Below are positions 2,389 through 17,127 of a stretch of 28,454 bases of DNA, piece after piece; within the stretch, counting starts at the first letter, position 1, and the number at the start of each line of letters is the position of its first letter. Origin of the DNA: an uncultured virus (IMG/VR IMGVR_UViG_2775507110_000002) (lineage: Duplodnaviria > Heunggongvirae > Uroviricota > Caudoviricetes); IMG/VR virus record IMGVR_UViG_2775507110_000002, one strand, 5' to 3'. The position numbers and the translations under genes were made by a program. A model generated the notes under the pieces. That model searched no databases. It was not told the origin of the DNA and saw only the letters and a program-made list of their open reading frames with translations.

Positions 2389-2424
2389 CGGGCCGCGAGC
2401 GGGTTGTCTCAGAATCACGCCAGC

Positions 2425-3093: not shown

Positions 3094-3175
3094 TCCTTAG
3101 GATTGCGTACAGCGCAGAAGTGGCGGGCCCCTTCGGTTCGGCCCGGCTTGTACGCGCGACCGGTACCTTGGGCGT

Positions 3176-3436: not shown

Positions 3437-3465
3437 CCGACCGCGCCGCAACGTACAGTCGGGTT

Positions 3466-3784
3466 ATGACAGTTCGCATCGTGATGCACGCTTCGTCCTT
3501 GCCCGATGGCTACCCGGCGGACGAGCGGGACCAGAACTACGAGGACACCTCCGGAGCCCGGTACACTTCGCTATCGATGCTCCGTCAGCCGCCCACCAGG
3601 GACGACGAGGGCTTAGCGCACGATCTGACATGGATGTTCCTCAAGCCCCTACACGTACACACTGCACCCGAGTGGGGCGTTGACCGTCTTCAAGAAGGAG
3701 GCGGGCATGCCCATCGCCGACATTGAAGTGATCTACGGCCCCACGGCGTGGGAGAGCGTGCAGGGCGACGGAGGCAACTCCTAG
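3466..3784 (+). pseudogene. Hypothetical protein with apparent one-base frameshift at GGGG 3674-3677
   Basis: TACAGT-N6-ATG start; removing one G continues the frame EW-ALTVFKKEAGMPIADIEVIYGPTAWESVQGDGGNS to TAG 3784 with GC3-rich codons. Confidence 0.55.
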
Positions 3785-3828
3785 CCCTGAGCTTAGGATC
3801 GCGCTCACAGCAGATTCGCACTGTTCGA

Positions 3829-3866
3829 CTGATGCCCCCTCCGGATGGTCACGGCGGGGGCATCAG
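3829..3866. terminator. Strong hairpin, probable terminator
   Basis: CTGATGCCCCC...GGGGGCATCAG 11-bp perfect arms plus an inner CCG/CGG stem. Confidence 0.6.
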
Positions 3867-3938
3867 CGCGTGTCACTCCAGATAATGTAAAGACCTCCCA
3901 GCGTTGACCCGCGTGTTTGTTGTGCGCTTTGTATCACC

Positions 3939-3962
3939 CACCTATAATTTCCCTTGTACGTG
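3939..3962. promoter_or_regulatory. Candidate tyrosine-recombinase core site
   Basis: CACCTATAA-TTTCCC-TTGTACGTG: 9-bp imperfect inverted arms (7/9) around a 6-bp spacer, in an AT-rich patch upstream of the recombinase operon. Confidence 0.45.
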
Positions 3963-3991
3963 CCTGCGTACCTGAGAGGGGATCTCCGCGC

Positions 3992-4642
3992 ATGACGCTC
4001 ACTCGGCAAATCATCCTTGCCCGCCTTGTCCTCGCTGTGTTCGCAGCGATGATGGCTTACGCGCTGATCGCTGGAGTGGCGAGCGGCTACTGGGGTGGCG
4101 TGGCCATCCTCGTTCCGCTGATCGCCATAGGCGCATGGGCGCTCCGCCTTGAGTGGGGGATGCTTGACCAGCAGCGCCCCATCGCTGAACTGGGCACCCA
4201 ACTCCGCGAAGCGGCACGGGTGGTGCCCACCGGTGTGACTCGGATCTTCATCAGCAGGACCTCGGACGAGGTGATCCTCTGCCACCCCTCCCGGAAGCAC
4301 AGCAGCCCTGACCAGTTCTCCCGGGTGCAGATCGAAGACGCGGAGACGATGAACTTCGCGGAGCCGGGCGCTCTGATCCACCTGCCCGCCACCACCTACC
4401 GGGTAAGCCGGACCCTCCCGATGGTCTGGCGGCACTCCTGGGTTGGGGAAGCCGTCAAGGGGGCGGAGGGGGAGTACCACTCCAGCACGCCCACGCCGAC
4501 AAGCTACCGCGCGGCGCTCAAGGCTCTGATGCTGAACCACCGGACCGGCGTGATGGTCCCGGACGGTCAGGAGCTGCGCGAGGTGATCGACCTGATCCAG
4601 CGCGCTGACCGCGCCCTGGACGTGCCGGGCAGCCCGGCGTGA
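3992..4642 (+). CDS. Membrane protein (two N-terminal TM helices plus soluble domain)
   Basis: GAGAGGGG RBS; two hydrophobic segments in the first ~50 aa; stop overlaps the recombinase start (GTGA). Confidence 0.7.
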   Translation: MTLTRQIILARLVLAVFAAMMAYALIAGVASGYWGGVAILVPLIAIGAWALRLEWGMLDQQRPIAELGTQLREAARVVPTGVTRIFISRTSDEVILCHPSRKHSSPDQFSRVQIEDAETMNFAEPGALIHLPATTYRVSRTLPMVWRHSWVGEAVKGAEGEYHSSTPTPTSYRAALKALMLNHRTGVMVPDGQELREVIDLIQRADRALDVPGSPA

Positions 4643-5793
4643 CCGACAACCTGGAGGTGGTCGACGCCGAGCTGGTAGACGACGACCGCCTCCCCGCCAC
4701 CATCCAGCCCCACCCGCCCGCCACCGTGCGCCCGGCGGTCGACCGGCACACCGTGCTCTACCCCGGGCAGGCTGTCCCCACCAAGGCAGACCAGCCGACG
4801 TACACCGAACGGGACCTGTACGTCTCCGAGCGGACCGCCGAGCGGATGGAGAACCACTCCGCGCCGAAGAACACCAGCGCCAACTACACCTCCCAGCGCA
4901 ACCTGTTCAAGGCTTGGTGCACCGCGCAGGGCCGCGTCGCCCGGCCCTGCACCACCGCCACGTACATCGAGTACGCCGCCCACCTCATCGACCTCGGCCG
5001 GTCCCCGAACGCCATCAGCGCCGCCCTGTCCGCCGTCCGCACCTGGATGCCCGAGGACAAGAAGCCCGGCACCCGAGAGGCCCGGGGGATGCTGAACGAG
5101 TACAAGAAGGAGTGGGCGAAGCGCACCGCCGTCCGCAAGGCCCCGCCCATCAACGACGCGCTACTGCGGGCCATGGTCGCCACGTGCGACCTCACCACCC
5201 CCGCCGGGGTCCGGGACCGGTGCATGCTCCTCCTCGGCCACGGAGCGCTCAACCGGCGCGTCGAACTCGCCGACCTGTCCATCGCTGACGTGGCGGTCGA
5301 CGACGACTTTGTGACCCTCCACATCCGGTCGTCCAAGACCGACCAGGAGGCCAAGGGCGAACACACCGACATCCCCACCGACCCCGACCCGCTCCTCGAC
5401 CCGGTGGCCGCCGTACGGAACTGGCTGACCGTCCTCCACCGCCTCGGCGTCCGCGACGGCGCATTCTTCCGCGCCTTGACCTCCCGGGGCACCCTGCAGA
5501 GCCGTGCGGCCGCCAAGGAGCGGGGGGCATACGTCACCGGGGACGCCATCAACGACTGGGTACGCAACCGGGCACACAAAGCCGGGGCACCCAACTGGCA
5601 GCAGATCACCGCCCACGGGCTCCGCCGAGGCGGCGCACAAGCCATCGCGGAAGCGGGCCAGGATCCGACGAAGCAGGGCCGGTGGAAGCCCGGCTCGACC
5701 GTGGTGAAGCGGGAGTACCTGGACCGGGCCCAGTCCAGGGCGGAGAATCCGTGGCTCAAGGTGCAGGCGAAACGGCGCGAGGAGCCCACGTGA
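4639..5793 (+). CDS. Cre-like tyrosine site-specific recombinase
   Basis: Core-binding domain (NTSANY...FKAWC); catalytic R (LNRRVEL), K (SSKTD), HxxR (AHGLRRG), W (GRW) and Y (REYL). Confidence 0.9.
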   Translation: MTDNLEVVDAELVDDDRLPATIQPHPPATVRPAVDRHTVLYPGQAVPTKADQPTYTERDLYVSERTAERMENHSAPKNTSANYTSQRNLFKAWCTAQGRVARPCTTATYIEYAAHLIDLGRSPNAISAALSAVRTWMPEDKKPGTREARGMLNEYKKEWAKRTAVRKAPPINDALLRAMVATCDLTTPAGVRDRCMLLLGHGALNRRVELADLSIADVAVDDDFVTLHIRSSKTDQEAKGEHTDIPTDPDPLLDPVAAVRNWLTVLHRLGVRDGAFFRALTSRGTLQSRAAAKERGAYVTGDAINDWVRNRAHKAGAPNWQQITAHGLRRGGAQAIAEAGQDPTKQGRWKPGSTVVKREYLDRAQSRAENPWLKVQAKRREEPT

Positions 5794-6881
5794 CCCCCAA
5801 GGCGTACAAGGCGGCGTCGGTGCGGCAGCTGTCGGCGGTGGTCGACGGCATGGCCGGCACCGTATCGGAGGGCCGGTTGCGGCAGTTGCGGATGGTGGTC
5901 GGCATGTTCGACCGGGCGGTGGGCCGGGACGAGATGCCGGGCCGGGCAGCCAGGTCGGCGGCCCAGTTGTTCACGTGGGCGGCGTTGCGCCCGTTCTGGG
6001 AGTTGGCGGCGGCCGGGGAGTTGCGGCACTGGGAGAAGGGTGTGGGGAAGCCGCTGCCGGTGACGACGCTCAGGGTGGTGCGGAACTGCCTGGAGATCCT
6101 GGCCGGCCGGGTGTTGCCGGAGGGGCGGTGGGTGCGGTTGCCGGAGCTGGAAGTGCCCGTGCTGAAGCCGACGGTGGATGACCGGTCGCTGGCTGCCTTG
6201 TACCGGGGGATGGTGGATCTGGCCGCGCAGGGGCCGTTGGTGCGGGACGGGACGGCGTTGTCGGTGGAGGACCGCACCCGACTGTTGGCGATGGTCGCGG
6301 TGCTGCTGGACGCGGGGCCGCGGTCGGGGGAGATGGCCGCGCAGACGTTGGCGGACCTGGCGCCGGGTGAGGTGGCGGTGGGGGTGCGGCGGCGGTCCCA
6401 GCGTCTGGACGAGTACCGGGTTGGGGAGGTGGCCGCGGTGACGGGGGTGCATCCGGTGACGGTGTCGAAGGTGTTGTCCGGGTTGGGGAACGACCGCTTC
6501 TCGGAGGCGACGGAGGCCCTCGTGCTGGAGGCGGCTGCGGCGTTGCCGCCGGTGCCGGAGGTGGAGTGGTTCGAGTTGCGGGAGGGGTCTCGGGTGGTGG
6601 TGCGCCGGTGGTTGGCGTTGCGGGAGCGCCTGGTGTCGGAGGATGTGCCGTTGACGGGTCAGCGGACCGCGCTGTGGGTGTCGTTGGTGCCGTCGAAGGC
6701 GGGCCCGATCGGGATCCCGCTCAGGCCGCAGGGGTTGAGGCAGGCGTATGCGCGGGGGATCACGGCGTTGAACTGGGTGATGGCCGGCCAGTACGGGTGG
6801 GAGCCGTTTCCGACGACGATGGAGCAGGTGCGCCGGTCGGTGGATGTGGTGCCGTTGCTGGATCCGCCGCCGGGGGTGTGA
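5790..6881 (+). CDS. Degenerate tyrosine-recombinase-fold protein with inserted LacI-type HTH
   Basis: GTGA-coupled start; RTRLLAMVAVLLDAGPRSGEM (box I), LacI-like RVGEVAAVTGVHPVTVSKVLSG...SEATEALVLEAAAAL, VRRWL and ALWVS patches; ends TMEQVRRS with no catalytic Tyr segment. Confidence 0.7.
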   Translation: MTPKAYKAASVRQLSAVVDGMAGTVSEGRLRQLRMVVGMFDRAVGRDEMPGRAARSAAQLFTWAALRPFWELAAAGELRHWEKGVGKPLPVTTLRVVRNCLEILAGRVLPEGRWVRLPELEVPVLKPTVDDRSLAALYRGMVDLAAQGPLVRDGTALSVEDRTRLLAMVAVLLDAGPRSGEMAAQTLADLAPGEVAVGVRRRSQRLDEYRVGEVAAVTGVHPVTVSKVLSGLGNDRFSEATEALVLEAAAALPPVPEVEWFELREGSRVVVRRWLALRERLVSEDVPLTGQRTALWVSLVPSKAGPIGIPLRPQGLRQAYARGITALNWVMAGQYGWEPFPTTMEQVRRSVDVVPLLDPPPGV

Positions 6882-6888
6882 GCCGAGG

Positions 6889-7095
6889 TCAGGTGCCGGG
6901 GAGGGTGTCTTGGTCGACTTCGTGGGGTGCGGCGGCGCCGGGGTGCCGGTTGGGGTCGCAGTCGGGGCCCCAACCGTTCAGGCGTGAGCTGAGGGCGGTC
7001 AGCGGCCGTCCGCAGCGTCGGCAGTACCGGTGCCGGTACCCGGTGTTGGGGTCGTCGATGAGGGTGGGCTGCTGGTTCCGGTCGGTTCGGGCCAT
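6889..7095 (-). CDS. DUF6011-like zinc-finger protein
   Basis: CRRCGRPLTALSSRLNGWGPDC motif. Confidence 0.7.
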   Translation of the reverse strand: MARTDRNQQPTLIDDPNTGYRHRYCRRCGRPLTALSSRLNGWGPDCDPNRHPGAAAPHEVDQDTLPGT

Positions 7096-7175
7096 GGGTT
7101 CAGTGTCCGGTTTGGTGGCGGCTGGCGCGAGGTGCGGTCTACAATCACCGTGATCTCACGGTTCTGCCCGTGAGC

Positions 7176-7206
7176 GAGGCCACCCCCGGGGACGGAGGTG
7201 GCCTTC
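7176..7206. terminator. Hairpin, probable terminator
   Basis: GAGGCCACC...GGTGGCCTTC stem 13 nt after the stop of 7220-7474. Confidence 0.5.
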
Positions 7207-7219
7207 GGCGTTCACGGGG

Positions 7220-7474
7220 TCAGGCGGTCTCGCGGTGCTTCTCAACCAGATCCCGGATCCACGGCTCCCAGAACTCCTGGAGGTCGACCCGATAGGCGAT
7301 CGACACCAGCAGCTTCGACTCCCGGTCGATGGTCAACGCCGTGACGCTGGTGACCTCCTCACGGTGGTACGCGATGCGCAGCCCCACCACATCGCAGTGG
7401 ACGAAGTCGTACTTGATGGGCGGCACGTCGGAGACGGAGAGTTCCAGTGTCCGGGCGGTGATCTCGGTCTTCAT
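7220..7474 (-). CDS. Hypothetical protein
   Basis: 84 aa; AAGGAG RBS; GC3-rich codons. Confidence 0.7.
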   Translation of the reverse strand: MKTEITARTLELSVSDVPPIKYDFVHCDVVGLRIAYHREEVTSVTALTIDRESKLLVSIAYRVDLQEFWEPWIRDLVEKHRETA

Positions 7475-7492
7475 GGGGCTCCTTAGGTGGGG

Positions 7493-7642
7493 TCAGGCGC
7501 GGGTGCGCATCCAGTGCTTGGGGTCGTTGCCGGTTCCGCAGCAGGTCGGACAGTTGCCCGTGTCCGGGTCGCAGTCGACGCAGCCGGCCCCGTCGCACTG
7601 GGGGTGGGCGCCTTCGCCTTTACAGGTGCGGCAGTCGTTCAT
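7493..7642 (-). CDS. 49-aa Cys-rich protein with DnaJ-type CxxCxGxG zinc-finger repeats
   Basis: MNDCRTCKGEG...CPTCCGTG; AAGGA RBS. Confidence 0.7.
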   Translation of the reverse strand: MNDCRTCKGEGAHPQCDGAGCVDCDPDTGNCPTCCGTGNDPKHWMRTRA

Positions 7643-7656
7643 GGGGTTCCTTCGGG

Positions 7657-8103
7657 TCAGGCGGCGAGGCCGGTGTCGGACTGGATCAGGGTGCGCGGGG
7701 TGTAGTCGGCGTCGTCCTGGTCGCGGGCGAGCTCGTAGAAGAACAGGGCCTGCGCGTCGGAGACGGGCGCGGGGGCGGGCCGGATGTACTTGGTGGGGGC
7801 CGGGCGGTCCAGGACGTGGGCCATGCGGTGGACGGTGTAGCTGAGAATGCCCGACAGGTGGAATTCCCGGGCTTCTCCCCGGAGCCGGCACATGGCGATG
7901 ACGATGATGCCGCCGCCCTTGACGGTGCCGTCCTTGCGGATGCGCACGCTGGTGGTGCGGAGTTCGGTGATCTCGATGGTCCTCACAGTGGGCTCGGTCT
8001 CGCCGGGCTTGAGGTAAGTGATGGTCACGGCGTTGGCGCGGTCCAGGGCGCGGTAGAGGTCGGCGAGGGTCTTGGTGCTGGTCTGCCGGTCGGTGTGCTT
8101 CAT
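7657..8103 (-). CDS. Stand-alone WYL-domain protein
   Basis: AVTITYLKPGETEPTVRTIEI...VIAMCRLRGEAREFHLSGI matches the WYL pattern; 148 aa; no HTH seen. Confidence 0.7.
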   Translation of the reverse strand: MKHTDRQTSTKTLADLYRALDRANAVTITYLKPGETEPTVRTIEITELRTTSVRIRKDGTVKGGGIIVIAMCRLRGEAREFHLSGILSYTVHRMAHVLDRPAPTKYIRPAPAPVSDAQALFFYELARDQDDADYTPRTLIQSDTGLAA

Positions 8104-8147
8104 CGATACCCCCGCGTGTTGTGGTGTGCGACCACCATGACACGAAA

Positions 8148-8181
8148 CGTATTGCCAATGCAATACGAAACCAGGTACTGT
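8148..8181 (+). promoter_or_regulatory. Promoter with overlapping palindromic operator (copy 1)
   Basis: CGTATTGC-caat-GCAATACG over TTGCCA-N18-TACTGT; near-identical copy at 23084. Confidence 0.75.
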
Positions 8182-8259
8182 GGTGTTCACCGGGACGGTC
8201 CCGGGTCGCAGACACCCCCGATCTGTATGGCGTCTGCAATACGAATGGAGGAAACTGGC

Positions 8260-9132
8260 GTGGCCAACGCCCCCAAGAAGCGCCCGCCGAACATCAGGTC
8301 CAGTGGGCGCCCCCCGAGAGGACCCCGCCCCGTGCCGACCAGCCCCAACCTCCGCGCACAGCTCCAGGACGCCGCTGCTTTCTGCCGCACCGGAGGAAAG
8401 CCGGCCCCCCACCTCGCGGACGCCATCACCCAAGTCCTCCGCCCCGGCGGGTGGAAGGCCCTCCAGGGAGTCGACGAGACCAGCACGGGCAGCAACCTCG
8501 CGATCCGCATGGCGGAGTCTCACCGCGAGAAGATTCGTGACGGAGTCAACCGGCTCTCCACGGCCGTCACCATCACCTCGCTCGTCAACGAGGGGTTCGA
8601 GAAGTTCCTCGCCGGGGAGTTCCAGCCCCGCAACCGCACCACGAAGGAACGCCGCGCAACTGGCGAGAAGATGGTGAACCTGAACGTCAGGCCGAAGGCG
8701 CACCTGTACGAGCAGGTTCGCGAGTCGGGTGTTCTGCCGATGTACGTGGCGGAGGACTACCTGATGTCGCTGTTCAACATCGGCCCGTACGCCTGGGAGG
8801 CGTCGGAGCGTCTGCCGTCGGGTGCCGACCGGCAGCCCCGGGTTCCTCTGCCGCTGCGTGACGCGATCCGGAACAAGGCTGCGTCGCTCGGCCGCATCGT
8901 TCACGACGACATGAACGAGGGCTTCCAGAAGTACCTGGCCGGCGAGTACGAGCCGCCCGTCATGGAGTGGCCGGAGGGCGCGGAGATGGCGATCCTCAAG
9001 GTCCGTCCGAACAACGAGCTGTTCGACGAGGTGAAGATCAAGGCTCAGGGTTCGCCTGAGCTGTCCCCGATTCGGATCGGGATCACGTACGTGATGGAGA
9101 AGTACGGCATCGACCCTGCGGCTACGTCGTAG
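8260..9132 (+). CDS. Putative DNA-binding regulator with internally duplicated ribbon-helix-helix-like units
   Basis: GGAGG RBS before GTG; two similar halves (VNEGFEKFLAGEFQP...NLNVRP / MNEGFQKYLAGEYEP...ILKVRP). Confidence 0.65.
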   Translation: MANAPKKRPPNIRSSGRPPRGPRPVPTSPNLRAQLQDAAAFCRTGGKPAPHLADAITQVLRPGGWKALQGVDETSTGSNLAIRMAESHREKIRDGVNRLSTAVTITSLVNEGFEKFLAGEFQPRNRTTKERRATGEKMVNLNVRPKAHLYEQVRESGVLPMYVAEDYLMSLFNIGPYAWEASERLPSGADRQPRVPLPLRDAIRNKAASLGRIVHDDMNEGFQKYLAGEYEPPVMEWPEGAEMAILKVRPNNELFDEVKIKAQGSPELSPIRIGITYVMEKYGIDPAATS

Positions 9133-9206
9133 CCCCCGCCGGGGGCGGGTTCCGGTGAGCACACCCGGGCCCGCCACCTGGTGGCGATAACCCCATAGGA
9201 GACCTC

Positions 9207-10136
9207 ATGGCCCCGGCCACCGAGGCCCCCGCCAGCGTCACGGCGGAGGGCCCCACCTCGCACACCCAAAACCAGGTCAGCCGCTTCACCGCACCGCAGC
9301 TCCGGCTCCTTCACCGCCAGCTGGACCCCAAGCGGATCGGCAAGGACGACAAGGGCTTTGCGCACATGCAGGCCTGGGACATCAAGCGGTACCTGCTCCG
9401 CGTCTTCGGGTTCGCCGGGTACGACACGGAGAACCGGGAGCTTGCCCTGCTCCGCGAGATCGAGACCCCCAACGGCAACCGGTCCAAGTGGACCGTGGTC
9501 TACCGGGCGCAGGTCCGGCTGACCGTGAAGGACGTCCACGGCAACGTCCTGGGCTACTGGGACGGAGAGGCAGCCGGCGCTGGCAACAACCTGCCGAACC
9601 TGGCCGACTCGCACGACATGGCGATGAAGACCGCCACCTCGCAGGCCTTCAAGCGGGCCGCGACTCACCTGGGCGACGCGTTCGGACTGTCGCTGTACAA
9701 CAACGGCTCCCCGCAGCCGGTCGTCCAGTTCTCTGCGGCTCACCCGCCGGAGCAGTGGGAGAAGGTCGCCGCGCCGCTGCCGGAGCCGGAGGACCCGCCT
9801 GTGCTGCCGGAGCAGGATGCGAAGCCGGCCGACGAGGAACCCGCACCGGCCGCCACCGCATCCCGCCCGCGGGGTATGTCGCCGGCCGAGACGCAGCAGC
9901 AGGTGCTGGGGCCGTTCCTGGAGCGGGTCCGCAACGGGTGGGACACCTTGGAAGCCACGCTCCAGGCCCTCGCCGAGGCAAAGGCGAAGGCGTTGCTGAA
10001 CGAGATGGTGCCGTTCGGTGAGCCGAAGGTCCCGACCCGGGTCGAGGACATGCTCAACGCCCGCATCAAGCAGCTCCGGGCCCGCCGTGACGAGCGAAAC
10101 GGGCACGCCGACACCCACGAGAGGAGCGCCGCCTGA
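9207..10136 (+). CDS. Rad52/Rad22-family (Sak-like) single-strand annealing protein
   Basis: FAHMQAWDIKRYLLRVFGFAGY, YRAQVRLTV, HDMAMKTATSQAFKRAATHLGDAFGLSLY; AGGAG RBS. Confidence 0.85.
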   Translation: MAPATEAPASVTAEGPTSHTQNQVSRFTAPQLRLLHRQLDPKRIGKDDKGFAHMQAWDIKRYLLRVFGFAGYDTENRELALLREIETPNGNRSKWTVVYRAQVRLTVKDVHGNVLGYWDGEAAGAGNNLPNLADSHDMAMKTATSQAFKRAATHLGDAFGLSLYNNGSPQPVVQFSAAHPPEQWEKVAAPLPEPEDPPVLPEQDAKPADEEPAPAATASRPRGMSPAETQQQVLGPFLERVRNGWDTLEATLQALAEAKAKALLNEMVPFGEPKVPTRVEDMLNARIKQLRARRDERNGHADTHERSAA

Positions 10137-11110
10137 TGGCCTCGGTGGATCTCTTCGCCGGCCCCGGTGGTATCGACCTCGCCGACCAGGCGGTCGGGAT
10201 CGAGTGGGACGCGAACGCGGTCGCCACGCGGATCGCCGCCGGGCTGCCGACCGTGCACGGTGATGTTCGGGACTACGGGCCGGCGGACTTCCCGGACGCG
10301 ACACGGCTCACCGGTGGCCCCCCGTGTCAGACGTTCACCGTGGCGGGTGCCGGGTCCGGGCGTGCGGCCCTGGGCGGCATCCTGTCCGCGGCCCGGAGCA
10401 TGGCTGCCCGCAGGAAGGTGTCGCACGTCTTCGACGACGACCGGACCGGCCTGGTGTTGGAGCCGTTGCGGTGGGCGTTGACCGCGGTGGACATGGGGCG
10501 CCCGTACGAGACGATCCTGTTGGAGCAGGTGCAGCAGGTGCAGCAGGTGTGGGACGAGTACGCGGTGTTGTTGGCCGCGGAGGGCTACCACGTTGCTACG
10601 GGCGTGTTGAGGACGGAGCAGTACGGGGTGCCGCAGACGCGCCGCCGGTCGGTGCTCCTGGCTCGTCTCGACGGCCCCGTTGCACTGCCGGTACCGACGC
10701 ACCGCCCGTATCGGAAGGGTGTCGCCCAGTCTGTGGGTGATCCGGGGTTGTTGCCGTGGGTGTCGATGGGTGAGGTGCTGGACCGGCCCGGCCCGTTCGA
10801 GGTGATCTCGAACTACGGCACCGGTGGTGACCCGAAGAACCGGGGGCGGCGTACGAGCTTCGAGCCGGCGGCGACGGTCACGGGCAAGGTGTCCCGGTCC
10901 CGGATCGTCGGCCCGGGCGGTGTGGAGTTGCCGCGGTTCTCCCCTGCGGAGGCCGGGTTGTTGCAGTCGTTCCCCGCGGACTACCCGTGGTCGGGCAAGG
11001 ACGTCGCCCAGCAAATCGGGAACGCCTGCCCACCGCTGCTGGCGCGGGTGCTGCACGACGCGCTCTCTGGGGCGCCGGAACCTGCATCTTCCCTGTTCGC
11101 CGCCGCCTGA
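10136..11110 (+). CDS. Orphan C5-cytosine DNA methyltransferase
   Basis: Motif I DLFAGPGG, IV GPPCQ, VI LEQV, VIII YGVPQTRRR, IX LQSFP, X QQIGNACPP. Confidence 0.9.
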   Translation: MASVDLFAGPGGIDLADQAVGIEWDANAVATRIAAGLPTVHGDVRDYGPADFPDATRLTGGPPCQTFTVAGAGSGRAALGGILSAARSMAARRKVSHVFDDDRTGLVLEPLRWALTAVDMGRPYETILLEQVQQVQQVWDEYAVLLAAEGYHVATGVLRTEQYGVPQTRRRSVLLARLDGPVALPVPTHRPYRKGVAQSVGDPGLLPWVSMGEVLDRPGPFEVISNYGTGGDPKNRGRRTSFEPAATVTGKVSRSRIVGPGGVELPRFSPAEAGLLQSFPADYPWSGKDVAQQIGNACPPLLARVLHDALSGAPEPASSLFAAA

Positions 11111-11200
11111 TCCGGCTACTGCCAACCTGCTGCAAACCATCGGCCGGTCCCATCCCGGGGCCGGCCGCAGTCATCTTCACCACCTGTTGGGAGGCCCGTC

Positions 11201-11434
11201 GTGGGCGTTGTCGTGCTGTACCTGTCCCTCTCGTTCGCCGTGTCCGCGCCGTTCGGTGTGGCCGTGTGGCGCCACCTGGCCCGCCGCCCGCAGGAGGTGC
11301 CCGCCCCGTACGCCCGGTACCGGCCGGAGCGGAACTCCGCGGTGGTGCTGGCGGAGCTGATCGTGCGTACCACCTATGTGGGCCTGGCCGACCTGTACGA
11401 GCCGCCCACCCCGACCGGGGGTGTACCGCGGTGA
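11201..11434 (+). CDS. Small membrane protein
   Basis: GGAGG RBS; N-terminal hydrophobic segment. Confidence 0.55.
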   Translation: MGVVVLYLSLSFAVSAPFGVAVWRHLARRPQEVPAPYARYRPERNSAVVLAELIVRTTYVGLADLYEPPTPTGGVPR

Positions 11435-11508
11435 CCCCGAAGCCCAGCCCGAGACCCAAGCCCGTGCCCACGCTGTGCCGACGCCCCGGAGAGGAGGCGA
11501 AGACCGCC

Positions 11509-11838
11509 ATGACCACCATCCAGCAGTACGCCGCTATGGCCGCGGTGCTCGCCGTGTTGGCGGGTGCCGGCCGGGTGTGGTGGCAGTTGCACCGCCTGCG
11601 CCGTGTGCTGCGGACGGAGCGCGCCGCCGCCCTCCTGACGGACGCCACGCACGAGAGGGACATGGAGGTGTTCCGTACCCGGGTCGCCCGCGCGGTCGCC
11701 GAGCAGCGGGCCGCGGAGGACTTCGCCGCCCGGGCCACCGCCGACCTCGCGGTGATGGCCGCGGCCGATGCGATCGTCACCGCCGAGCTGGCCCGCACCA
11801 CACACCACAACCCGCAGCAGGAGGGGGAAAACCCATGA
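11509..11838 (+). CDS. Membrane-anchored helical hypothetical protein
   Basis: GAGGAGG upstream; TM segment YAAMAAVLAVLAGAG; ATGA-coupled to the next gene. Confidence 0.6.
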   Translation: MTTIQQYAAMAAVLAVLAGAGRVWWQLHRLRRVLRTERAAALLTDATHERDMEVFRTRVARAVAEQRAAEDFAARATADLAVMAAADAIVTAELARTTHHNPQQEGENP

Positions 11839-12794
11839 CCACGACCGTCGATGCGATTGCCGCCCGGCAGCGCCTGGTGGACGACCGGCACTACCGGTAC
11901 CGGGGGTGCGCCCCCGACCCCGACCTGCCGGGCATGTCCGCGGGCGACCCGGAGGTGCCGTTGGATGCGTGGGGCCCGTACACGGGGGATGGTGCGGAGG
12001 CACAGAAGACCCGCCTGGACCGGGAGCAGACGGCCCTGCAGATTTGCAGCCGGTGCCCAGTCCTGGCCCTGTGCCGCACCTACGCCAACACCACCACCAC
12101 CGAAACCGACGCGAACGGCCGGCAGGTGGAGCACCTCGTCGAACCCGAAGGCGTCCTCGGCGGAGAGCTCGCCCTGACCCGGCACCGCCGGCTGATCGCA
12201 CGGCGGCACGACACGGTCACCGCCGACACCACCCCCACCCCGGTCGGCGACATGGTCGAGGCCCGCACCCCGCAGCGCCGCGAACTCCTCCTCGCCCTGG
12301 CCCGGGAGACCGACCCGGAGCGGGTGGCTGCTCTGGCGGGGATGGATGTACGGACCGCGAACTGGCACCGCTCCGCCCTGGTGGGCATGTTGGGCCTGGA
12401 CCGGGACCGTGCAACCCGCGATCAGCTGCTCGCCGCGGCGGTGGAGAACCGGCTGATACCCCGCTCGACCCGGATCCGCCCGGACGGGCCGTGGCCGTAC
12501 GCGGCCGCCCCGACGGCGGACGGGGTACGGCAGCGCAGGATCGCCCCCCGCCGCCCGGTACAGCTGGTGCTGCCCGCCCTGGAGGACGTGCCGCGCCGCC
12601 CCCGCCCGGCCCCGGAGGTGCGGGTGGTGGCCTCCCGCCCGCGCACACCCGCCCGGTTGGGGTCTGACCCGGTGCAGCTGCGCCTGGTGTTCCTTACCCC
12701 CACCACCACAGCGGCCGCGCTGACCCCCGCCCCGCCCCGGGGTGCGCGCCGACCCGCCCCTACCCCTTCGACCGTCCTGGAGCCCGCAGCATGA
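11835..12794 (+). CDS. Divergent WhiB-like Fe-S protein fused to an HTH and Pro/Arg-rich tail
   Basis: RGC...ICSRCPVLALC...GVLGG, then PERVAALAGMDVRTANWHRSALVGMLG (LuxR/sigma4-like HTH). Confidence 0.75.
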   Translation: MTTTVDAIAARQRLVDDRHYRYRGCAPDPDLPGMSAGDPEVPLDAWGPYTGDGAEAQKTRLDREQTALQICSRCPVLALCRTYANTTTTETDANGRQVEHLVEPEGVLGGELALTRHRRLIARRHDTVTADTTPTPVGDMVEARTPQRRELLLALARETDPERVAALAGMDVRTANWHRSALVGMLGLDRDRATRDQLLAAAVENRLIPRSTRIRPDGPWPYAAAPTADGVRQRRIAPRRPVQLVLPALEDVPRRPRPAPEVRVVASRPRTPARLGSDPVQLRLVFLTPTTTAAALTPAPPRGARRPAPTPSTVLEPAA

Positions 12795-13441
12795 ACCAGC
12801 CCACCACCGCAGGCCCCACGGCCGCGCCCGACGCCCCGTCACCCGCCCATGTCGACCGGGCCCTTGCCGCCCGCTGCCAGTCCTCCGGGGACCACATCGC
12901 CGGGCTCCTCGCATACGGTCACCTCGCCGCCGCCGGAACCGTCACCAAGCTCCCCACCGCCCTGTTCCCGGACTGGCCGGCCGACATGGTCCAGGCCGTG
13001 TGGGACGCCGCCCTCCCGGTGGGGTTCCAGGCGGGGAAACTCTCGGTGCGGCCGACGTGGACACGGGATGCCCTGGACCGGTTGCGGGCCGCCCTGGACG
13101 ACGCCGGGTACACGGCGATGGGTGGCCTGGTCGCCCGGTCCGCCACCGTGCACCCGCCCCGGCACCCCGCCGACGGCGAACAACCGGCCCCCGGTACGCG
13201 AGCACAGACAAGGAGTTCGCCACCGCCCTGGAGAAGGCCAAGGCAGCAGGGGCGAAGGTCCGCCGGGAGGGGGTGCCGCACGGCGAGTACCGGTACAACA
13301 TCCTCGGCTGCCGATGCCCGGACTGCGGCCTCGCCGCCACCGTCGCCCGCGCCGGACGCCGAGCCGAAGCCGCCACGAACACCACCACCGACGACGAGTC
13401 CCCGGCCAACACTGCCGGGGACGTCCACCCGATCCGGCTGA
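12791..13441 (+). CDS. Hypothetical protein; 3' part probably out of frame after ~13193
   Basis: ATGA-coupled; protein-like for ~134 aa, after which the codon bias moves to another frame. Confidence 0.55.
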   Translation: MNQPTTAGPTAAPDAPSPAHVDRALAARCQSSGDHIAGLLAYGHLAAAGTVTKLPTALFPDWPADMVQAVWDAALPVGFQAGKLSVRPTWTRDALDRLRAALDDAGYTAMGGLVARSATVHPPRHPADGEQPAPGTRAQTRSSPPPWRRPRQQGRRSAGRGCRTASTGTTSSAADARTAASPPPSPAPDAEPKPPRTPPPTTSPRPTLPGTSTRSG

Positions 13442-13445
13442 ATCT
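13193..13445 (+). pseudogene. Start-less fragment of an HG..Y..GCRCxxC zinc-finger gene
   Basis: Frame of ORF 12742 reads RYASTDKEFATALEKAKAAG...PHGEYRYNILGCRCPDC with GC3-rich codons. Confidence 0.5.
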
Positions 13446-13496
13446 GAAGAACGCCCTATCCGCACCTACACGTCACAACGGATACAGCGTGCACGC

Positions 13497-13631
13497 CTAC
13501 ACCCTCGGCCAGTCGTCCACCGGCGGCCAGGGGTCCTCGGGTCCCAACTCCATCTCACGCTCGGCAAGGGCGTCGCTCATCATCTCGTCGGCAAGGTACG
13601 CCGAGTCGTCGGCGTCATCCCAGTGAGTCAT
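13497..13631 (-). CDS. 44-aa strongly acidic peptide (not in ORF track)
   Basis: MTHWDDADDSAYLADEMMSDALAEREMELGPEDPWPPVDDWPRV; mostly G/C third positions; no clear RBS. Confidence 0.5.
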   Translation of the reverse strand: MTHWDDADDSAYLADEMMSDALAEREMELGPEDPWPPVDDWPRV

Positions 13632-13724
13632 ACCCAACTAACGACCAGCCGGTTCAACGCGTCACCCGACTGGTTCTTCTACTTCCTTTTTGCTGGCCAG
13701 GGCTTCCTGAAGGGGTACCAGGCC

Positions 13725-13768
13725 AGCTCAGCAAGATCCCGTTATTAATGTCGCAAAAGTATAGGACA
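13725..13768 (-). repeat. 44-bp site B, inverted copy of site A
   Basis: Minus strand TGTCCTATACTTTTGCGACATTAATAACGGGATCTTGCTGAGCT. Confidence 0.9.
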
Positions 13769-13806
13769 ACGGCACCGGGAAGCCGTGGGAGCGTGATGAG
13801 CTGCGG

Positions 13807-13960
13807 CCTCTGACGCCAGACGACCATTGACGTCCCCTACGCGGGGTTCCTGCTTCATCAGAGCCTGCCCATAATCGATCGGGTCTTCCAGCTCCTCCAC
13901 AGGCGTTTCACCTCTCCGCCCGTCCGGCGGCGAGGATGATTCGTGCAGCGTTAACGTCTC
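13807..13960 (-). ncRNA. Putative TnpB omega/reRNA: scaffold ending TCAA at 13827 plus ~16-20-nt guide (5' boundary approximate)
   Basis: After the tnpB stop: AACGCCTGTGGAG...GAAGCAGGAACCCC...GGGGACGTCAA, resembling IS200/IS605 right ends; the guide would be TGGTCGTCTGGCGTCAGAGG. Confidence 0.6.
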
Positions 13961-15026
13961 GATCGTGAACAGCTCCGCACGCCTCGCACGTCCACTGCCG
14001 AACACTGAGAGGCTTCGGGCCGTCAATGACCAGGCACATGTGACACGTCTGCGAGGAGGGAAGCCAACGGTCAACGCGATCGAATGTGCGTCCGTAGCGC
14101 ACAGCCTTGTACTCCAGCATCGCAGTGAACTGCGACCATCCGGCGTCATGAACTGATTTTGCAAGCCGTGTGCGCGCAAGGCCCTTCACTGCAAGGTCTT
14201 CCACGTACACCGCTTGGTTCTCGCGGATGATCGTGGTCGACAGCTTGTGGTGAAAGTCCCTACGCGCGTCAGCCACGTGAGCGTGAAGTCGCGCAACACG
14301 ATTCGTCGCCTTGCGGCGGTTCGCTGACCCTTGCCGCTTTCTTGAAACTGCCTGCTGGGCCTTCCGGAGCTTGCGCTCAGCTCGCCTCATGAACTTCGGG
14401 GAGGAGATCTTTCGCCCATCAGAGAGGACCGCAAAGTGTGTAAGCCCCAGGTCGATACCCACGTCTTGAGCGGCTTCCGGAAGGACCTCTGCCGGGTCAG
14501 TCTCGACAACGAACGAAGCGAAGTAGCGCCCGCTGGCATCCATGATGACTGTCACTGAAGAGGGGTCAGACGGAAGGCTGCGCGACCATCGGACGGCCAC
14601 GTCGCCGATCTTGGCCACATAGAGTCGACCGTTGGGTCGCAGGACGAAGGCGTTGCGGCATAGGCGGATAGCCTGATGCCGATCTTTCCGCGATCGGAAC
14701 TTCGGCTTACCTACCCTGCCGCCCTTGCGGGCCCCATTCAGAGACCTGAAGAAGTTGCTATATGCCACGTCAAGGTCTCGGAGTGCCTGCTGGAGAACCA
14801 CGTTGGAGGTCTCAGCAAGCCAGGCTCGTTCGGGCGTCTTCTTGGCTTGAGTGATCAGCAGCTTGGCGAGGTCTCCGGACCTGGGGAGCGGATCCCCCTT
14901 CTCCATCGCCTCTCGGCGCACTCGAAGAGCGTCGTTGTACACAGTTCGCGCGCACCCGAACGCGTTGGCCAGCGCCTTGCGCTGATCCTGCGTTGGGTAG
15001 AGCCGAAACTTGTACCGAAGCTGCAT
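13908..15026 (-). CDS. tnpB: IS200/IS605-family RNA-guided endonuclease TnpB
   Basis: RYKFRLYPT...FGCARTVYN, RuvC-I GIDLG, RuvC-II VEDL, Zn finger CHMC/CEAC, RuvC-III DRDVNAA. Confidence 0.95.
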   Translation of the reverse strand: MQLRYKFRLYPTQDQRKALANAFGCARTVYNDALRVRREAMEKGDPLPRSGDLAKLLITQAKKTPERAWLAETSNVVLQQALRDLDVAYSNFFRSLNGARKGGRVGKPKFRSRKDRHQAIRLCRNAFVLRPNGRLYVAKIGDVAVRWSRSLPSDPSSVTVIMDASGRYFASFVVETDPAEVLPEAAQDVGIDLGLTHFAVLSDGRKISSPKFMRRAERKLRKAQQAVSRKRQGSANRRKATNRVARLHAHVADARRDFHHKLSTTIIRENQAVYVEDLAVKGLARTRLAKSVHDAGWSQFTAMLEYKAVRYGRTFDRVDRWLPSSQTCHMCLVIDGPKPLSVRQWTCEACGAVHDRDVNAARIILAAGRAER

Positions 15027-15070
15027 GTACATCAGTGTACATGAACGTCTATGGTAGTACCCTGCGGTAC
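15025..15070. promoter_or_regulatory. Divergent leaderless promoters covered by a phased GTAC/TGTACA operator array
   Basis: GTAC at 15027, 15037, 15057 and 15067; TACACT-N7-ATG (tnpB, minus strand) and TACCCT-N7-ATG (antitoxin, plus strand). Confidence 0.7.
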
Positions 15071-15241
15071 ATGGATGAAGAATCGATCGAGATGTCCTCC
15101 GCTGAAGCCCGTCAGAACTTCGCCGATGTACTGAACGCCGCATCTGCACGCGGGCGCATCACGTACATCACGAGCCGAGGCCGGCGCGTCGCCGCGGTGG
15201 TTCCCCTATCGGTCGCCGAAGAGGCGGAAGCCCTGAAATGA
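15071..15241 (+). CDS. Orphan Phd/YefM-family antitoxin-like DNA-binding protein
   Basis: MSSAEARQNFADVLNAA...ITYITSRGRRVAAVVPL; 56 aa. Confidence 0.85.
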   Translation: MDEESIEMSSAEARQNFADVLNAASARGRITYITSRGRRVAAVVPLSVAEEAEALK

Positions 15242-15506
15242 CAGCAAAGCAACCTACGTCCTGGATTTCCGTTCAACATGTAGGCTGCGCCTAGCGTTAG
15301 ACGAGTGATCAGAACGGCAGCAAGTCGGCTCTGGGGCGCGCAATCGAACTGCAACTCCCTGTCGATGACGCAGAACGGCTCGCGCAGCAAATGCTCCGCA
15401 TGGCCGCCGCCGCACGCAGGCAGGCCAACCGAACTTCCCGTGCCGACCAGGCGCAGGGGCAGACCGAACCCGGCAAGGGGGATCAGGTGACGTGGCGATC
15501 TTCTGA

Positions 15507-15660
15507 GCGGGAGGTCCTGGGCCCCTTGGCGGGGGCACTTCCTCTACCGCTGGCCGCTGATGTTGGCGCATCGTGCGCGGCCACTTCCACGGCTCGGTTT
15601 GGCGACCGAGCTAAGGCCCGACTTCCGGATCCGGTTTGGCGACCGGGGCCAATCAGGTCG
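15507..15660 (+). repeat. Array of four stem-loops with identical TTGGCG loops in the rep leader
   Basis: Loops start at 15526, 15563, 15599 and 15636; stems GCCCC/GGGGC, GATG/CATC, GGCTCGGT/ACCGAGCT and TCCGGT/ACCGGG. Confidence 0.8.
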
Positions 15661-15741
15661 AGCGACTTCAGGTTCCTCACGAACCCACCCCGCGAGCGGG
15701 GCCCTTAGTGCATCCACCTACAAGAAGAGGACGGGTACATA

Positions 15742-17127
15742 GTGCAGTACGACGCACCTGCTTGTCAGCTTGAGCGCGCAAACGATGGCGATTCGCGGCA
15801 AAAGTCCACCCCCCAGGTCGGCACCGAGTGCCCCCCGATCGCCCCGTGGGCGCCCGTCAGTGCCACCGCCATGGAGATCCACACCACCGCCTCCCGGCAC
15901 ACCGCACCCCGCAACTGGCTCCGCAGCGTCGAGTGGCTCATCGCCGCCGGCCTCCACCCCAAGGCCAACCAGACGACTCTCCTCGTCGCCCAGGACCTCG
16001 CCAAGCGCATGGACTACAGCACGGGGCACGTCCGCTACGGACTCGAGGACATGGCCGTACGGCTCGACCTTGACCGGTCCAACGTCGCCCGGCACGTGAA
16101 GTACCTCCGCGAGCTCGGCTCCCTCGCCTGGGCTGCGCGCGGCTCCCGCAGCAACATCAAGCGCATCCTCGGCCGCCCCGGGTACGCCGCCACCGCCACC
16201 GTGTACGCCGCCACGATCCCGGCCGTCTACGACCACGCCATGGGCCACCGGATCATCGGCGAGGGGTACGAGGCGCGGGCCATCGCGGTCCGTCAGGAGA
16301 CCAGCGTCGCCGGGGGTGCGAATGCCCCCGAATCGGCTGTGGATAACTCCTCTTCGGGCCCTGTGGATAACCCCGCTAAACGATCTCTTGCGACCCCTTC
16401 CCTTACCCCAGCCACCTATGAGGATCAGGTTCAGATGGTGGGGGGTGTAACTACTACCGCGACGCGGCAGCAAACCACCTTCAGCTCCCCCTCCCAGACG
16501 GCCAAGACCAACAGCGGCAGCAAGAAGCGGGCCACGATCCTCGGCAACCCGGTCACCGCACCCGGCATGCGCCTCGGAGACCGCCTCGCCCGCGCCATCC
16601 GCCGCGCCGTCCCGTGGACCCGCCGCGCCACCCACGACCAGCTCCGGTGGATCTGCGCCGACATGGGCGAGCAGCAGTGGACCGAGGACCAGGCCGTGCG
16701 GTTCGCCATCGAGACCGGCCACCAGCACGCCGCCGGCTTCGTCTGGAACCCTCAGCACCCCCACCGGGTCCTCGCTGCCGCCCTGCGCACCGTGGACGCC
16801 GACCAGCTCGAGGAGGTTCCCTTCGACCCGACGCACTCCGTCGCGTACGAGGACTCCACCGTCGCCCGTGACTGGGCCTCTCTCGAAGCGATCTTCGCCC
16901 TTGGCCAGCCAGCCTCCGAGGCCGCGCACCCGGACGACATTCCCGCCGACCGGTACACCGACGACGACCGGCTCCGCGCCCGCCTCGACTGGAACGCCTG
17001 GCCCGAGGTCGCCCGCCACTACGCCGACGACCCCGACGACGCCCTCGACCTCTACGGCACCAAGCTCTGCTGCTACGCCGCACGCCGGGACGCCGCAAAC
17101 CGAAACCGACAGGAGGCGTGGGCATGA
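15742..17127 (+). CDS. Putative replication initiator with N-terminal winged HTH (start may be ATG 15871)
   Basis: GLEDMAVRLDLDRSNVARHVKYLRELGSLAW HTH; low-complexity linker carrying DnaA boxes; operon with DciA genes next to parAB. Confidence 0.7.
   Translation: MQYDAPACQLERANDGDSRQKSTPQVGTECPPIAPWAPVSATAMEIHTTASRHTAPRNWLRSVEWLIAAGLHPKANQTTLLVAQDLAKRMDYSTGHVRYGLEDMAVRLDLDRSNVARHVKYLRELGSLAWAARGSRSNIKRILGRPGYAATATVYAATIPAVYDHAMGHRIIGEGYEARAIAVRQETSVAGGANAPESAVDNSSSGPVDNPAKRSLATPSLTPATYEDQVQMVGGVTTTATRQQTTFSSPSQTAKTNSGSKKRATILGNPVTAPGMRLGDRLARAIRRAVPWTRRATHDQLRWICADMGEQQWTEDQAVRFAIETGHQHAAGFVWNPQHPHRVLAAALRTVDADQLEEVPFDPTHSVAYEDSTVARDWASLEAIFALGQPASEAAHPDDIPADRYTDDDRLRARLDWNAWPEVARHYADDPDDALDLYGTKLCCYAARRDAANRNRQEAWA
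16338..16370. promoter_or_regulatory. Two perfect DnaA boxes, candidate intragenic origin
   Basis: TGTGGATAA at 16338-16346 and 16362-16370 (reverse complement TTATCCACA), followed by a locally AT-richer stretch. Confidence 0.75.

Follow-up and report, generated by a model that had tools for sequence, protein, structure and literature searches.

The tnpB-phd pair studied here is most readily understood, at a probability that we put near 60%, as a degraded copy of an IS200/IS605-family element of Actinobacteria in which a small phd gene, with its own operator module of GTAC boxes, substitutes for tnpA and encodes a putative repressor of tnpB. The pair lies in a 28,454-nt stretch of DNA, analysed as a whole and referred to as the window, and resides in the cargo slot of a ZL12-like Streptomyces phage-plasmid. 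The arrangement is a new flavour of one recently described for the regulator Arc, and not the domesticated, regulated nuclease that an earlier note on this DNA had proposed. Coordinates are collected in Table 1.

Table 1. Features of the tnpB-phd locus in the window
Feature	Position	Strand	Description and basis
Guide-position flank	13807..13826	minus	TGGTCGTCTGGCGTCAGAGG; backbone DNA read as omega-RNA guide; directly after right-end terminus GTCAA
Right end and omega-RNA scaffold	13827..13952	minus	Overlaps the tnpB 3' end; shortened; nhmmer profile
tnpB	13908..15026	minus	372 aa, intact RNA-guided nuclease gene; Pfam, NCBIfam, structure alignment
Intergenic region	15027..15070	none	44 nt; four GTAC-core boxes; putative Phd operator over both promoters
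phd	15071..15241	plus	56 aa; N-terminal domain of Phd/YefM, no tail for toxin binding; Pfam, NCBIfam, structure model
Beyond phd	15242..15277	none	36 nt; probable inner remnant of left end; left-end profile, backbone homology

Two intact genes, head to head

The canonical start of tnpB is the ATG at 15026 (MQLRY..., the same in all relatives) and its stop occupies 13908-13910; an in-frame ATG at 15032 would lengthen the protein by MY. The product scores 106 bits against the Pfam profile OrfB_IS605, 80 bits against Cas12f1-like_TNB, 64 bits against HTH_OrfB_IS605 and 340 bits in the NCBIfam comparison of guided_TnpB with TnpB. Its nearest solved relative is the TnpB of ISDra2 (8h1j/8exa; E 2e-68), in which the segments GVDVGI, GTEHL and HDRDENAA pair with GIDLGL, YVEDL and HDRDVNAA of the window protein. 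As the earlier note had read from the letters, the three RuvC acidic residues (D192, E276 and D357) and the zinc finger (C328, C331, C347 and C350) are all in place; in an alignment of 49 TnpB sequences D192 is nearly invariant and the six others are invariant. One of the marks by which membership of the IS200/IS605 family was judged, a TnpB (OrfB_IS605) with RuvC and zinc-finger motifs, is therefore present. The tnpB branch has a dN/dS of about 0.08, indicating strong purifying selection, and a GC3 of 0.70 vs 0.85-0.89 in relatives. No Y1 HUH transposase TnpA was found at the locus or in the window region, so that the description of the locus as tnpA-less holds; the IS200/IS605 family admits members with tnpB only (the IS1341 group).

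The identity of the divergent gene likewise stands, its coordinates, Pfam, NCBIfam and fold being in agreement. The Phd protein scores 32.5 bits against PhdYeFM_antitox (cut-off 29.8), over profile positions 5-45 of 74 only, and 36.8 bits against the NCBIfam model phd_fam. Its AlphaFold model (AF2; pLDDT 91.9) has as top Foldseek matches YefM (2a6q_B) and Phd (3k33_C/4zlx_A), with TM values of 0.65-0.77; as modelled, the fold is that of Phd/YefM and not ribbon-helix-helix (RHH). The gene is under purifying selection (dN/dS of 0.08-0.49 in 21 pairs), and a tblastn search of 50,697 phage records with the protein returned no match. Phd ends after the DNA-binding and dimerisation domain, its relatives share no conserved tail past VAExAE, and the C-terminal toxin-binding segment is absent. 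The orphan status given to phd was borne out as well: four ORFs scanned in 15257-15705 all fall below the Pfam cut-off, no cognate toxin (Doc, YoeB or similar) lies directly downstream, and this DNA is the 3' portion of a backbone gene. The idea that Phd serves as a protease-labile stress sensor gained no support here; the protein lacks the disordered C-terminus that true antitoxins possess.

Transposon ends and the slot divergent from tnpB

The relatives of TnpB were assembled into a set of 95 loci, 15 viral and 80 genomic, the window included. Among TnpB relatives (60-73% identity), an IS200-type tnpA is the usual occupant of the slot divergent from tnpB. By tblastn, backed by Pfam, Y1 TnpA fills it in 53 of the 95 loci, a Phd of the window type in five (the window itself, L009, L021, L048 and L083), a second Phd type in six, with three further fragments, and RHH proteins in three. 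At least four small DNA-binding genes have taken the same slot independently in this TnpB clade.

The earlier note had seen no room for a left end in the 44 nt between the genes. This was a misreading, since the relatives have their left end on the far side of phd and not in the gap. A profile of the left end, derived from 17 loci with tnpA, matches immediately past the small gene of L021 (E 4.4e-8), L030, L074, L084, L068, L067 and L008. It finds little or no match in the window and L009, and a weak one in L048; the position of phd inside the element, observed in some relatives, is therefore extrapolated to the window lineage. One genome, G590, contains two copies that share the target motif GCT(A/G)C, the left-end hairpin and phd, with 95% identity over 307 bp, between unrelated flanks, and L037 and L039 are two element copies that are 99.8% identical. 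The right end closes with GTCAA in all 76 non-identical relatives listed. The guide that follows it varies from locus to locus in the comparison of four Phd loci (the window, L009, L021 and L048). A left end beyond phd with variable guides is what the earlier note had named as the sign of an ordinary insertion sequence carrying a passenger, and both were found among the relatives. Since their left end lies beyond phd and the guides vary between loci, we regard the element as an insertion sequence with an internal passenger gene.

Like IS608 and ISDra2, these elements combine TnpB with an omega-RNA overlapping the tnpB 3' end, and the relatives have subterminal hairpins at both ends, a right end in TCAA and a left end after xTAC/TGAC. 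These motifs resemble the TCAA and TTAC of IS608. Unlike IS605-type elements with divergent tnpA and tnpB, the window copy has no tnpA, no detectable left end and a shortened right end. A right-end profile from 31 relatives (nhmmer) matches 13952-13835 over model positions 1-118 of 176 (E 1.3e-22), the other 58 positions being absent. The terminus ACGTCAA is retained at 13827, GTCAA lying 121 nt from the anchor vs 161-200 nt in most relatives. The variable stem of the omega-RNA is missing, the terminal hairpin has shrunk to CCCC-GCGTA-GGGG with a 4-bp stem, and the scaffold is about 50 nt shorter than those of relatives; a scan of the window at Rfam gathering thresholds gave 0 matches. On the other side, the left-end profile has no match in the window at E<=1, and neither hairpin nor target-adjacent motif (TAM) is detectable. 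Segment 15250-15270 (GGAAATCCAGGACGTAGG) was considered as a right-end remnant of another copy, an idea that was dropped because the right-end profile is silent there at E<=10. A CTAC at 15280-15283, which could be taken for the family target motif, may be there by chance, as the left-end hairpin is missing. With its left end undetectable and its scaffold about 50 nt short, the window copy is probably immobile and stranded, possibly with an impaired guide RNA.

Homology to the phage-plasmid backbone extends to 13826, by comparison with L111-L113, and picks up again at about 15290-15307. L111-L113 and ZL12 carry other cargo in this slot, and the nearest record, G001, lacks the pair, position 12794 being joined to 15278. 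G001 was rejected as an exact empty site, since about 1 kb of backbone (12795-13826) that is kept in L111-L113 is also missing from it. Of 12 related phage-plasmid loci, four (L111, L112, L113 and L118) have a conserved backbone site identical, at 16/16 positions, to the initial 16 nt of the guide, and 5 further loci have 1-3 mismatches.

It could be argued, with this match in support, that the phage-plasmid has kept the TnpB-Phd pair for inducible attack or defence, for example against related phage-plasmids, and that the pair is no longer a transposon. Both ends are defective, yet both reading frames are intact and tnpB is under strong purifying selection, which is not obviously expected of a pure decaying relic. 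However, a match between guide and uninterrupted site results from any IS605 insertion, the relatives have CTGAG or CTGAA immediately 5' of that site and not the YTAC/TGAC that precedes left ends in the family, and the omega-RNA scaffold is shortened. Among the related phage-plasmids compared (L111-L113, ZL12 and G001), the pair was not found outside this one lineage. Domesticated TnpBs, TldR-like or host-recruited, keep a conserved guide and locus across lineages and often have a dead RuvC; TldRs are TnpB-like, nuclease-dead repressors, tnpA-less relatives of TnpB with host functions. Here, unlike in TldR, RuvC retains its acidic residues and the loci do not share a conserved guide. We consider domestication decidedly unlikely.

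The occupancy of the slot also bears on a toxin-antitoxin-like relationship, in which TnpB would be a toxin that Phd neutralises by protein-protein contact. A module of this type was proposed for archaeal RHH/MazE-TnpB pairs, in which a small gene of antitoxin-like character lies upstream of tnpB and in the same direction, the RuvC is rearranged and the small protein is proposed to bind TnpB (Altae-Tran et al. 2023, PMC10691335). Phd does have an antitoxin fold, and in L125 and L127 close relatives of it adjoin nucleases of other types (Endonuclease VII and GIY-YIG, respectively). In contrast to the archaeal pairs, however, the RuvC is canonical here, the genes are divergent and form no operon, and the operator evidence points to DNA. 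Phd stops after its DNA-binding and dimerisation domain (5-45 of 74), with unconserved tails, and most relatives have tnpA or nothing in the slot, which argues that TnpB needs no antidote. This relationship is very improbable.

The GTAC boxes of the divergent gap

The start codons of tnpB and phd are separated by the 44 nt of 15027-15070, and four GTAC boxes, at 15027, 15037, 15057 and 15067, are spaced 10/20/10. The array reported by the earlier note is real: GTAC occurs 130 times in the window, and this gap is the only place with four of them within 45 nt (Poisson P of about 6e-5 per position for the cluster). By sequence, a putative palindromic operator is present 5' of phd. The -10-like hexamer TACACT, as read from the sequence, lies 7 nt upstream of the tnpB ATG, within the box TGTACACT, a placement that matches the TAGACT-N7-GTG geometry of tnpA-bearing relatives. 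Since a simple sigma-70 scan of 13600-15400 gave no promoter-like site, the placement of the promoter rests on the reading of this TANNNT box. A terminator scan of the same interval gave one terminator-like site, inside tnpB, which is no more than in shuffled sequences.

The boxes track the Phd family. Two to four are present in all five loci that pair TnpB with the window-type Phd (Phd1) vs none or one in 15 tnpA-bearing TnpB relatives. In 24 of 24 Streptomycetaceae loci, one to four boxes lie upstream of phd (0.3-0.8 expected), and 21 of these genes have boxes without having TnpB beside them. Three loci with the second type, Phd2 (L074, L084 and L067), have no GTAC at all; the operators of Phd2, if any, therefore differ.

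E. coli YefM represses through paired TGTACA boxes across its own promoter (PMC1802561). The present boxes have a 10-bp spacing instead of 12 bp. The boxes go with the Phd family and not with the tnpA-bearing relatives, and purifying selection acts on phd; most likely, therefore, Phd represses its own gene and would also shut off the tnpB promoter, much as Arc does. The repressor role put forward by the earlier note is supported in part, by the association of boxes with the Phd family and by the selection on phd.

The same data were set against a passenger model, according to which Phd has a job of its own, for instance as a regulator or orphan antitoxin in the service of mobile elements, any effect on tnpB being incidental. 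TnpB adjoins only 1 of 30 Phd-family loci from 401 Streptomycetaceae genomes, and the GTAC module occurs without TnpB. In G590, which holds three decayed Phd copies, phd persists beside tnpB genes that are broken by internal deletions, a pattern that fits a function of Phd independent of TnpB. Speaking for the degraded-element reading, all 7 sites with a Phd of at least 65% identity in Streptosporangiaceae (in 5 of 201 genomes) adjoin TnpB or a TnpB remnant. Against the passenger model, the gap is only 44 nt long and the boxes lie over the tnpB start, so that binding could hardly spare tnpB, and the independent capture of the slot by small DNA-binding genes, at least four of them, points to a function connected with the element. 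We hold the passenger model to be unlikely.

For the degraded IS200/IS605-family copy, the following scheme can be proposed. The order in the family is TAM, left end, phd (leftwards), the 44-nt operator/promoter gap, tnpB (rightwards), omega-RNA, right end and guide. Elements of the Phd type would not move by themselves and would need TnpA supplied by tnpA-bearing relatives. Phd dimers may bind the four boxes on one helix face, at 10/20/10 bp, and thereby cover the TACACT hexamer, the tnpB start codon and the phd start. Bound Phd would repress phd and tnpB, together with the omega-RNA transcribed along with tnpB, and so hold nuclease levels down, as Arc does in IS605 elements. The window copy would have entered the cargo slot of the phage-plasmid and later lost its left-end hairpin, its TAM and about 50 nt of right end and omega-RNA, with both genes still intact.

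Relation to known regulators and significance

In IS605 elements, Arc is a repressor of tnpA and tnpB and binds their intergenic promoter (Moon, Zedaveinyte, Wiegand and Sternberg, Oct 2026; bioRxiv 10.64898/2026.09.24.754181). As presented there, Arc resembles Phd in being a small antitoxin-type DNA-binding protein encoded within the element, divergently from tnpB, in the use of the intergenic region as a bidirectional promoter/operator (putative here), and in having homologues beside homing endonucleases and in toxin-antitoxin systems. The gene lies within the transposon ends in relatives of the window copy as well; the ends of the window copy are undetectable. Unlike Arc, Phd has the Phd/YefM fold and not RHH, replaces tnpA instead of sitting beside it, and occurs in Actinomycetota; binding and repression are demonstrated for Arc and inferred for Phd. 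The main text of the preprint makes no mention of Phd, YefM, Streptomyces or Actinobacteria, and no link between TnpB and Phd/YefM appears among the literature matches listed, though TnpB and YefM co-occur in one of them.

The fold is that of the autorepressors of E. coli yefM-yoeB and phage P1 phd-doc. Paired palindromic boxes with a GTAC core over the promoter are shared with YefM (PMC1802561) and Streptomyces yefM/yoeB (PMC3303803). Unlike these antitoxins, the window Phd has no toxin gene and no toxin-binding C-terminus, its boxes differ in spacing, and its neighbour is a divergent nuclease gene.

A bolder extension is a long shot: actinobacterial IS605 elements might possess an exchangeable mini-repressor slot, which across the TnpB tree is occupied by tnpA, either of two Phd/YefM types or RHH proteins, with Phd/YefM as a second, structurally unrelated class of transposon-encoded TnpB regulator; the window copy, which has lost its ends while selection maintains phd, its putative operator and tnpB, might mark the onset of its recruitment by a phage-plasmid, its guide aimed at the conserved site of rival ZL12-like phage-plasmids as an exclusion or homing weapon that Phd silences until needed.

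When a tnpA-less TnpB is found next to an orphan antitoxin, transposon ends should be sought past the neighbour before the nuclease is called domesticated. TnpBs are the ancestors of Cas12 and serve as compact genome editors, Streptomyces included. The natural control of their expression is only now emerging (Arc, 2026). If Phd/YefM proteins act likewise, small antitoxin-type repressors would be a general, repeatedly evolved means of controlling TnpB and, if this is true, a 56-aa protein and four GTAC boxes would provide a defined protein-operator pair with which to switch actinobacterial TnpB systems.

The tnpB and phd genes

Two in-frame ATG codons could open tnpB, at 15032 and 15026; the latter was taken as the start because the codon matching it (M/V-QLRY) is the start in all relatives. 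The product, named RNA-guided endonuclease TnpB by NCBIfam, carries the Pfam OrfB_IS605 domain, the Cas12f1-like TNB zinc domain and an N-terminal HTH, and its residues 7-366 align with ISDra2 TnpB (E 2e-68). In this alignment the catalytic residues of ISDra2 TnpB, D191/E278/D361, are matched by the motifs GIDLGL, YVEDL and HDRD. Across an alignment of 49 family members, E276, D357 and four cysteines are invariant and D192 nearly so, which bears out the earlier note's claim that the RuvC acidic residues and the zinc finger are kept. The branch dN/dS of the window tnpB is about 0.08 and the gene shows no signs of decay.

The Pfam and NCBIfam matches of the divergent 56-residue protein correspond to the N-terminal domain of Phd only. 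Its predicted structure (pLDDT 91.9) is ordered strand-helix-helix-strand-strand-helix and most resembles chains of YefM and of Phd, among them one of the isolated P1 Phd DNA-binding domain. The phd gene is under purifying selection (dN/dS 0.08-0.49, 21 pairs). The two start codons lie 44 nt apart, and GTAC occurs at 15027, 15037, 15057 and 15067, the sole such cluster in the window. No toxin-like gene was found among the ORFs that follow phd at the window locus. The arrangement originally described, an intact TnpB closely opposed to a toxin-less Phd across GTAC boxes, is confirmed in the sequence.

Genes of the element in the window, and occupants of the slot divergent from tnpB in TnpB-relative loci (Phd1, the window's Phd type; Phd2, a second, distantly related type)
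Feature	Position or occurrence	Strand	Remarks
tnpB, 372 aa	13908-15026	-	stop 13908-13910; start ATG 15026
phd, 56 aa	15071-15241	+	divergent from tnpB; passes Pfam and NCBIfam Phd cut-offs
IS200-type Y1 transposase, whole or in pieces	53/95 loci		Pfam Y1_Tnp, 147 bits for L011
Phd1	5/95 loci		gaps of about 37-44 nt
Phd2	6/95 loci, plus 3 fragments
RHH proteins	3/95 loci		L008 and L033 (same element, HicB/Arc-like); L030

A transposed unit with an exchangeable left module

The TnpB relatives comprise 95 loci (15 viral, 80 genomic), nearly all from Actinomycetota and 60-73% identical to the query, except the 100% copy L005, which is the window's own, and the distant L018 (37%) and L019 (28%); a few are cut by contig ends and hence have no slot call. 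Phd1 stands opposite tnpB in the window copy, viral locus L009, Streptosporangium L021, Streptomyces boncukensis L048 and Actinomadura formosensis L083. Phd2 and two RHH-type genes (L052, L053, L074, L084, L067, L068; L008/L033; L030) lie opposite closely related TnpBs, and most of these loci have a canonical left end distal to the small gene. On a quick IQ-TREE phylogeny of 85 TnpB rows, sequences group by host family, Phd-bearing, tnpA-bearing and bare forms are interleaved, and Phd1 requires at least three changes on well-supported branches. Exchange or loss of the left module is therefore frequent, and tnpB stays. A toxin-antitoxin-like pair, with TnpB as the toxin, is a weakened explanation, since this Phd has no toxin-binding tail and many TnpB relatives have no small gene at all.

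The canonical element is defined by a pair of copies (L037/L039) that share one genome and 99.8% identity: behind a CTAC-type motif comes the left end, which has the hairpin CCGGCC-TTCAG-GGCCGG and GGGGTGAAG; tnpA and tnpB come next, and the right end, where this hairpin recurs, has the terminus GTCAA. Just distal to the small gene, a left-end profile built from 17 tnpA loci matches L021 (E 4.4e-8) and also the Phd2/RHH loci L030 (3e-11), L074, L084, L068, L067 and L008; the match is weak in L048 (E 0.26), and none was found in L009 or the window. The Streptosporangiaceae genome G590 holds three copies of the window's Phd type, two of which have 307 bp in common at 95% between unrelated flanks; GCT(A/G)C and the left-end hairpin stand at the start of this stretch, which extends through phd. 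These left ends and the G590 copies therefore place phd inside a transposed unit.

The sequences that follow GTCAA, the guides, are unlike among the window, L009, L021 and L048. Such differing guides, together with left ends beyond phd, were named in the earlier note as refuting its proposal of a domesticated nuclease; with the left ends in L021 and G590, they tell against it here. That this one copy has been domesticated by the phage-plasmid finds little support: its guide matches a conserved backbone site at 16/16 positions in 4/12 related phage-plasmid loci, but any insertion leaves such a match, and the site's base context, CTGAG, is unlike the family's target motif. Moreover, the Phd-TnpB pair occurs in one lineage only, and the nearest record, G001, lacks it.

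A damaged copy in a variable cargo slot

The window is GC-rich (about 70%), with a 60-62% GC block at about 13500-15500. To the right of the element, a 461-aa gene (15742-17127) is 87% identical to gp020 of the Streptomyces phage-plasmid ZL12, and the backbone is common to the window and three viral contigs of 87-92 kb (L111-L113). Between a conserved motif (window 13675-13770) and this gene, L112 and L113 carry small plus-strand genes and ZL12 an adenine methyltransferase. Backbone homology extends on the left up to 13826 and resumes on the right at about 15290-15307, where the window retains just the 3' part of a gene of 155 aa in L112. The element has therefore been inserted into a variable cargo slot. 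With a GC3 of 0.70 vs 0.85-0.89 in all compared relatives, its genes (13908-15241) stand out as foreign to this backbone and point to a donor whose GC content is below that of the present host.

G001 reproduces window 1-12794 at 100% identity and passes directly to 15278-15308, where its contig ends; missing from it is 12795-15277, which comprises the element and about 1 kb of backbone retained in relatives. A CTAC motif (15280-15283) is 1-2 nt away from the right edge of the junction. Because the contig end, 30 nt past the junction, resembles an assembly-graph branch, a single sample may contain both the element-bearing and the element-less form. The conserved non-coding motif (...GCTGGCCAGG...CCAGGCCAGC...GTTATTAATGTCGCAAAAGTATAGGACAA), found at 13675-13770, on the other strand at about 1890-1936, in ZL12 (88%) and in L111-L113, probably serves the phage-plasmid as a terminator combined with a promoter/operator. 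At 12742-13626, the backbone gene that follows the 472-aa ORF seemingly runs on in a second frame, its N-terminal part in the frame of 12791-13441 and its conserved C-terminal part (…EYRYNILGCRCPDCG…) in that of 12742-13626; L112 and L113 show this pattern too, which may come from a frameshift or from genes that overlap.

The omega-RNA region of relatives has conserved stems, with 28 predicted pairs, 21 of them showing compensatory changes. In the window, the match covers profile positions 1-118 of 176 (E 1.3e-22) and the terminal ACGTCAA is retained; the variable stem is missing, and of the terminal hairpin there remains CCCC-GCGTA-GGGG. The lost part seems to have been deleted between GGAACCC and GGAATCCCC, two motifs that resemble each other. 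The ISDra2 pseudoknot is made from the three to five bases that immediately precede the guide; the adjoining stem 4 is gripped by the WED domain, and stem 3 is partly dispensable (PMC10097598). The right-end hairpin needed by TnpA is largely gone and a left end is not detectable; this damaged copy is therefore probably immobile and stranded in a Streptomyces phage-plasmid.

Phd as a putative repressor of the interval

Each of the 5/5 Phd1-TnpB loci has two to four GTAC boxes within -60 to +12 of the tnpB start; 15 tnpA-bearing relatives have 0-1, and their gap holds a different conserved sequence, CATAGACCAAATGCTAGACT. Of the conservation anticipated among homologues, the boxes hold up in the Phd1 loci; the Phd neighbour is infrequent and the guides vary. 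In Streptomycetaceae, GTAC boxes precede Phd-family genes in 24/24 loci (0.3-0.8 expected), often as TGTACA(C) at 10-bp steps, and 21 of these 24 loci are without TnpB; the boxes therefore go with Phd and not with TnpB. YefM represses its own synthesis through paired TGTACA boxes over its promoter (PMC1802561), and similar GTAC palindromes are described in a Streptomyces yefM/yoeB promoter (PMC3303803).

The window box TGTACACT includes a -10-like TACACT, 7 nt before ATG 15026, an arrangement that TAGACT-N7-GTG repeats in tnpA-bearing relatives and that suggests leaderless tnpB transcripts. Phd bound at the boxes would thus sit on the putative tnpB promoter.

The closest TnpB-less relative of this Phd (65% identical; locus L125, 980-1700) is divergent from an Endonuclease VII gene across the same GTAC-box interval, and the Phd module therefore appears to partner several kinds of selfish nucleases. 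In four Streptomycetaceae loci (L126-L129; e.g. L127, 1480-2130), GTAC boxes accompany a 65-aa Phd-like gene, and the gene after it joins a GIY-YIG nuclease domain to a second Phd-like domain (Pfam); the two look like a nuclease/antitoxin-type pair. We know of no earlier description of this pair.

Phd may instead be a passenger with a separate job, as its family is mostly found away from TnpB and phd persists in G590 beside broken tnpB genes: the three copies (L184, L185, L182) have phd genes 95-97% identical to each other over shared stretches and tnpB genes with large internal or terminal deletions. In Streptosporangiaceae, all seven places with an at least 65% identical Phd adjoin TnpB or a TnpB remnant. 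Given boxes that travel with Phd and the selection on phd, this protein probably represses the tnpB/phd interval; this part of the original proposal survives, and its domesticated setting does not.

The closest precedent is Arc, an RHH protein within IS605 elements that binds at the promoter in the intergenic region, repressing both tnpA and tnpB (bioRxiv 10.64898/2026.09.24.754181); here a Phd/YefM protein takes tnpA's place, and the main text of that preprint mentions neither Phd nor YefM. We read the element as a member of the IS605 family in which a putative Phd/YefM mini-repressor replaces tnpA, a variation on the Arc theme.
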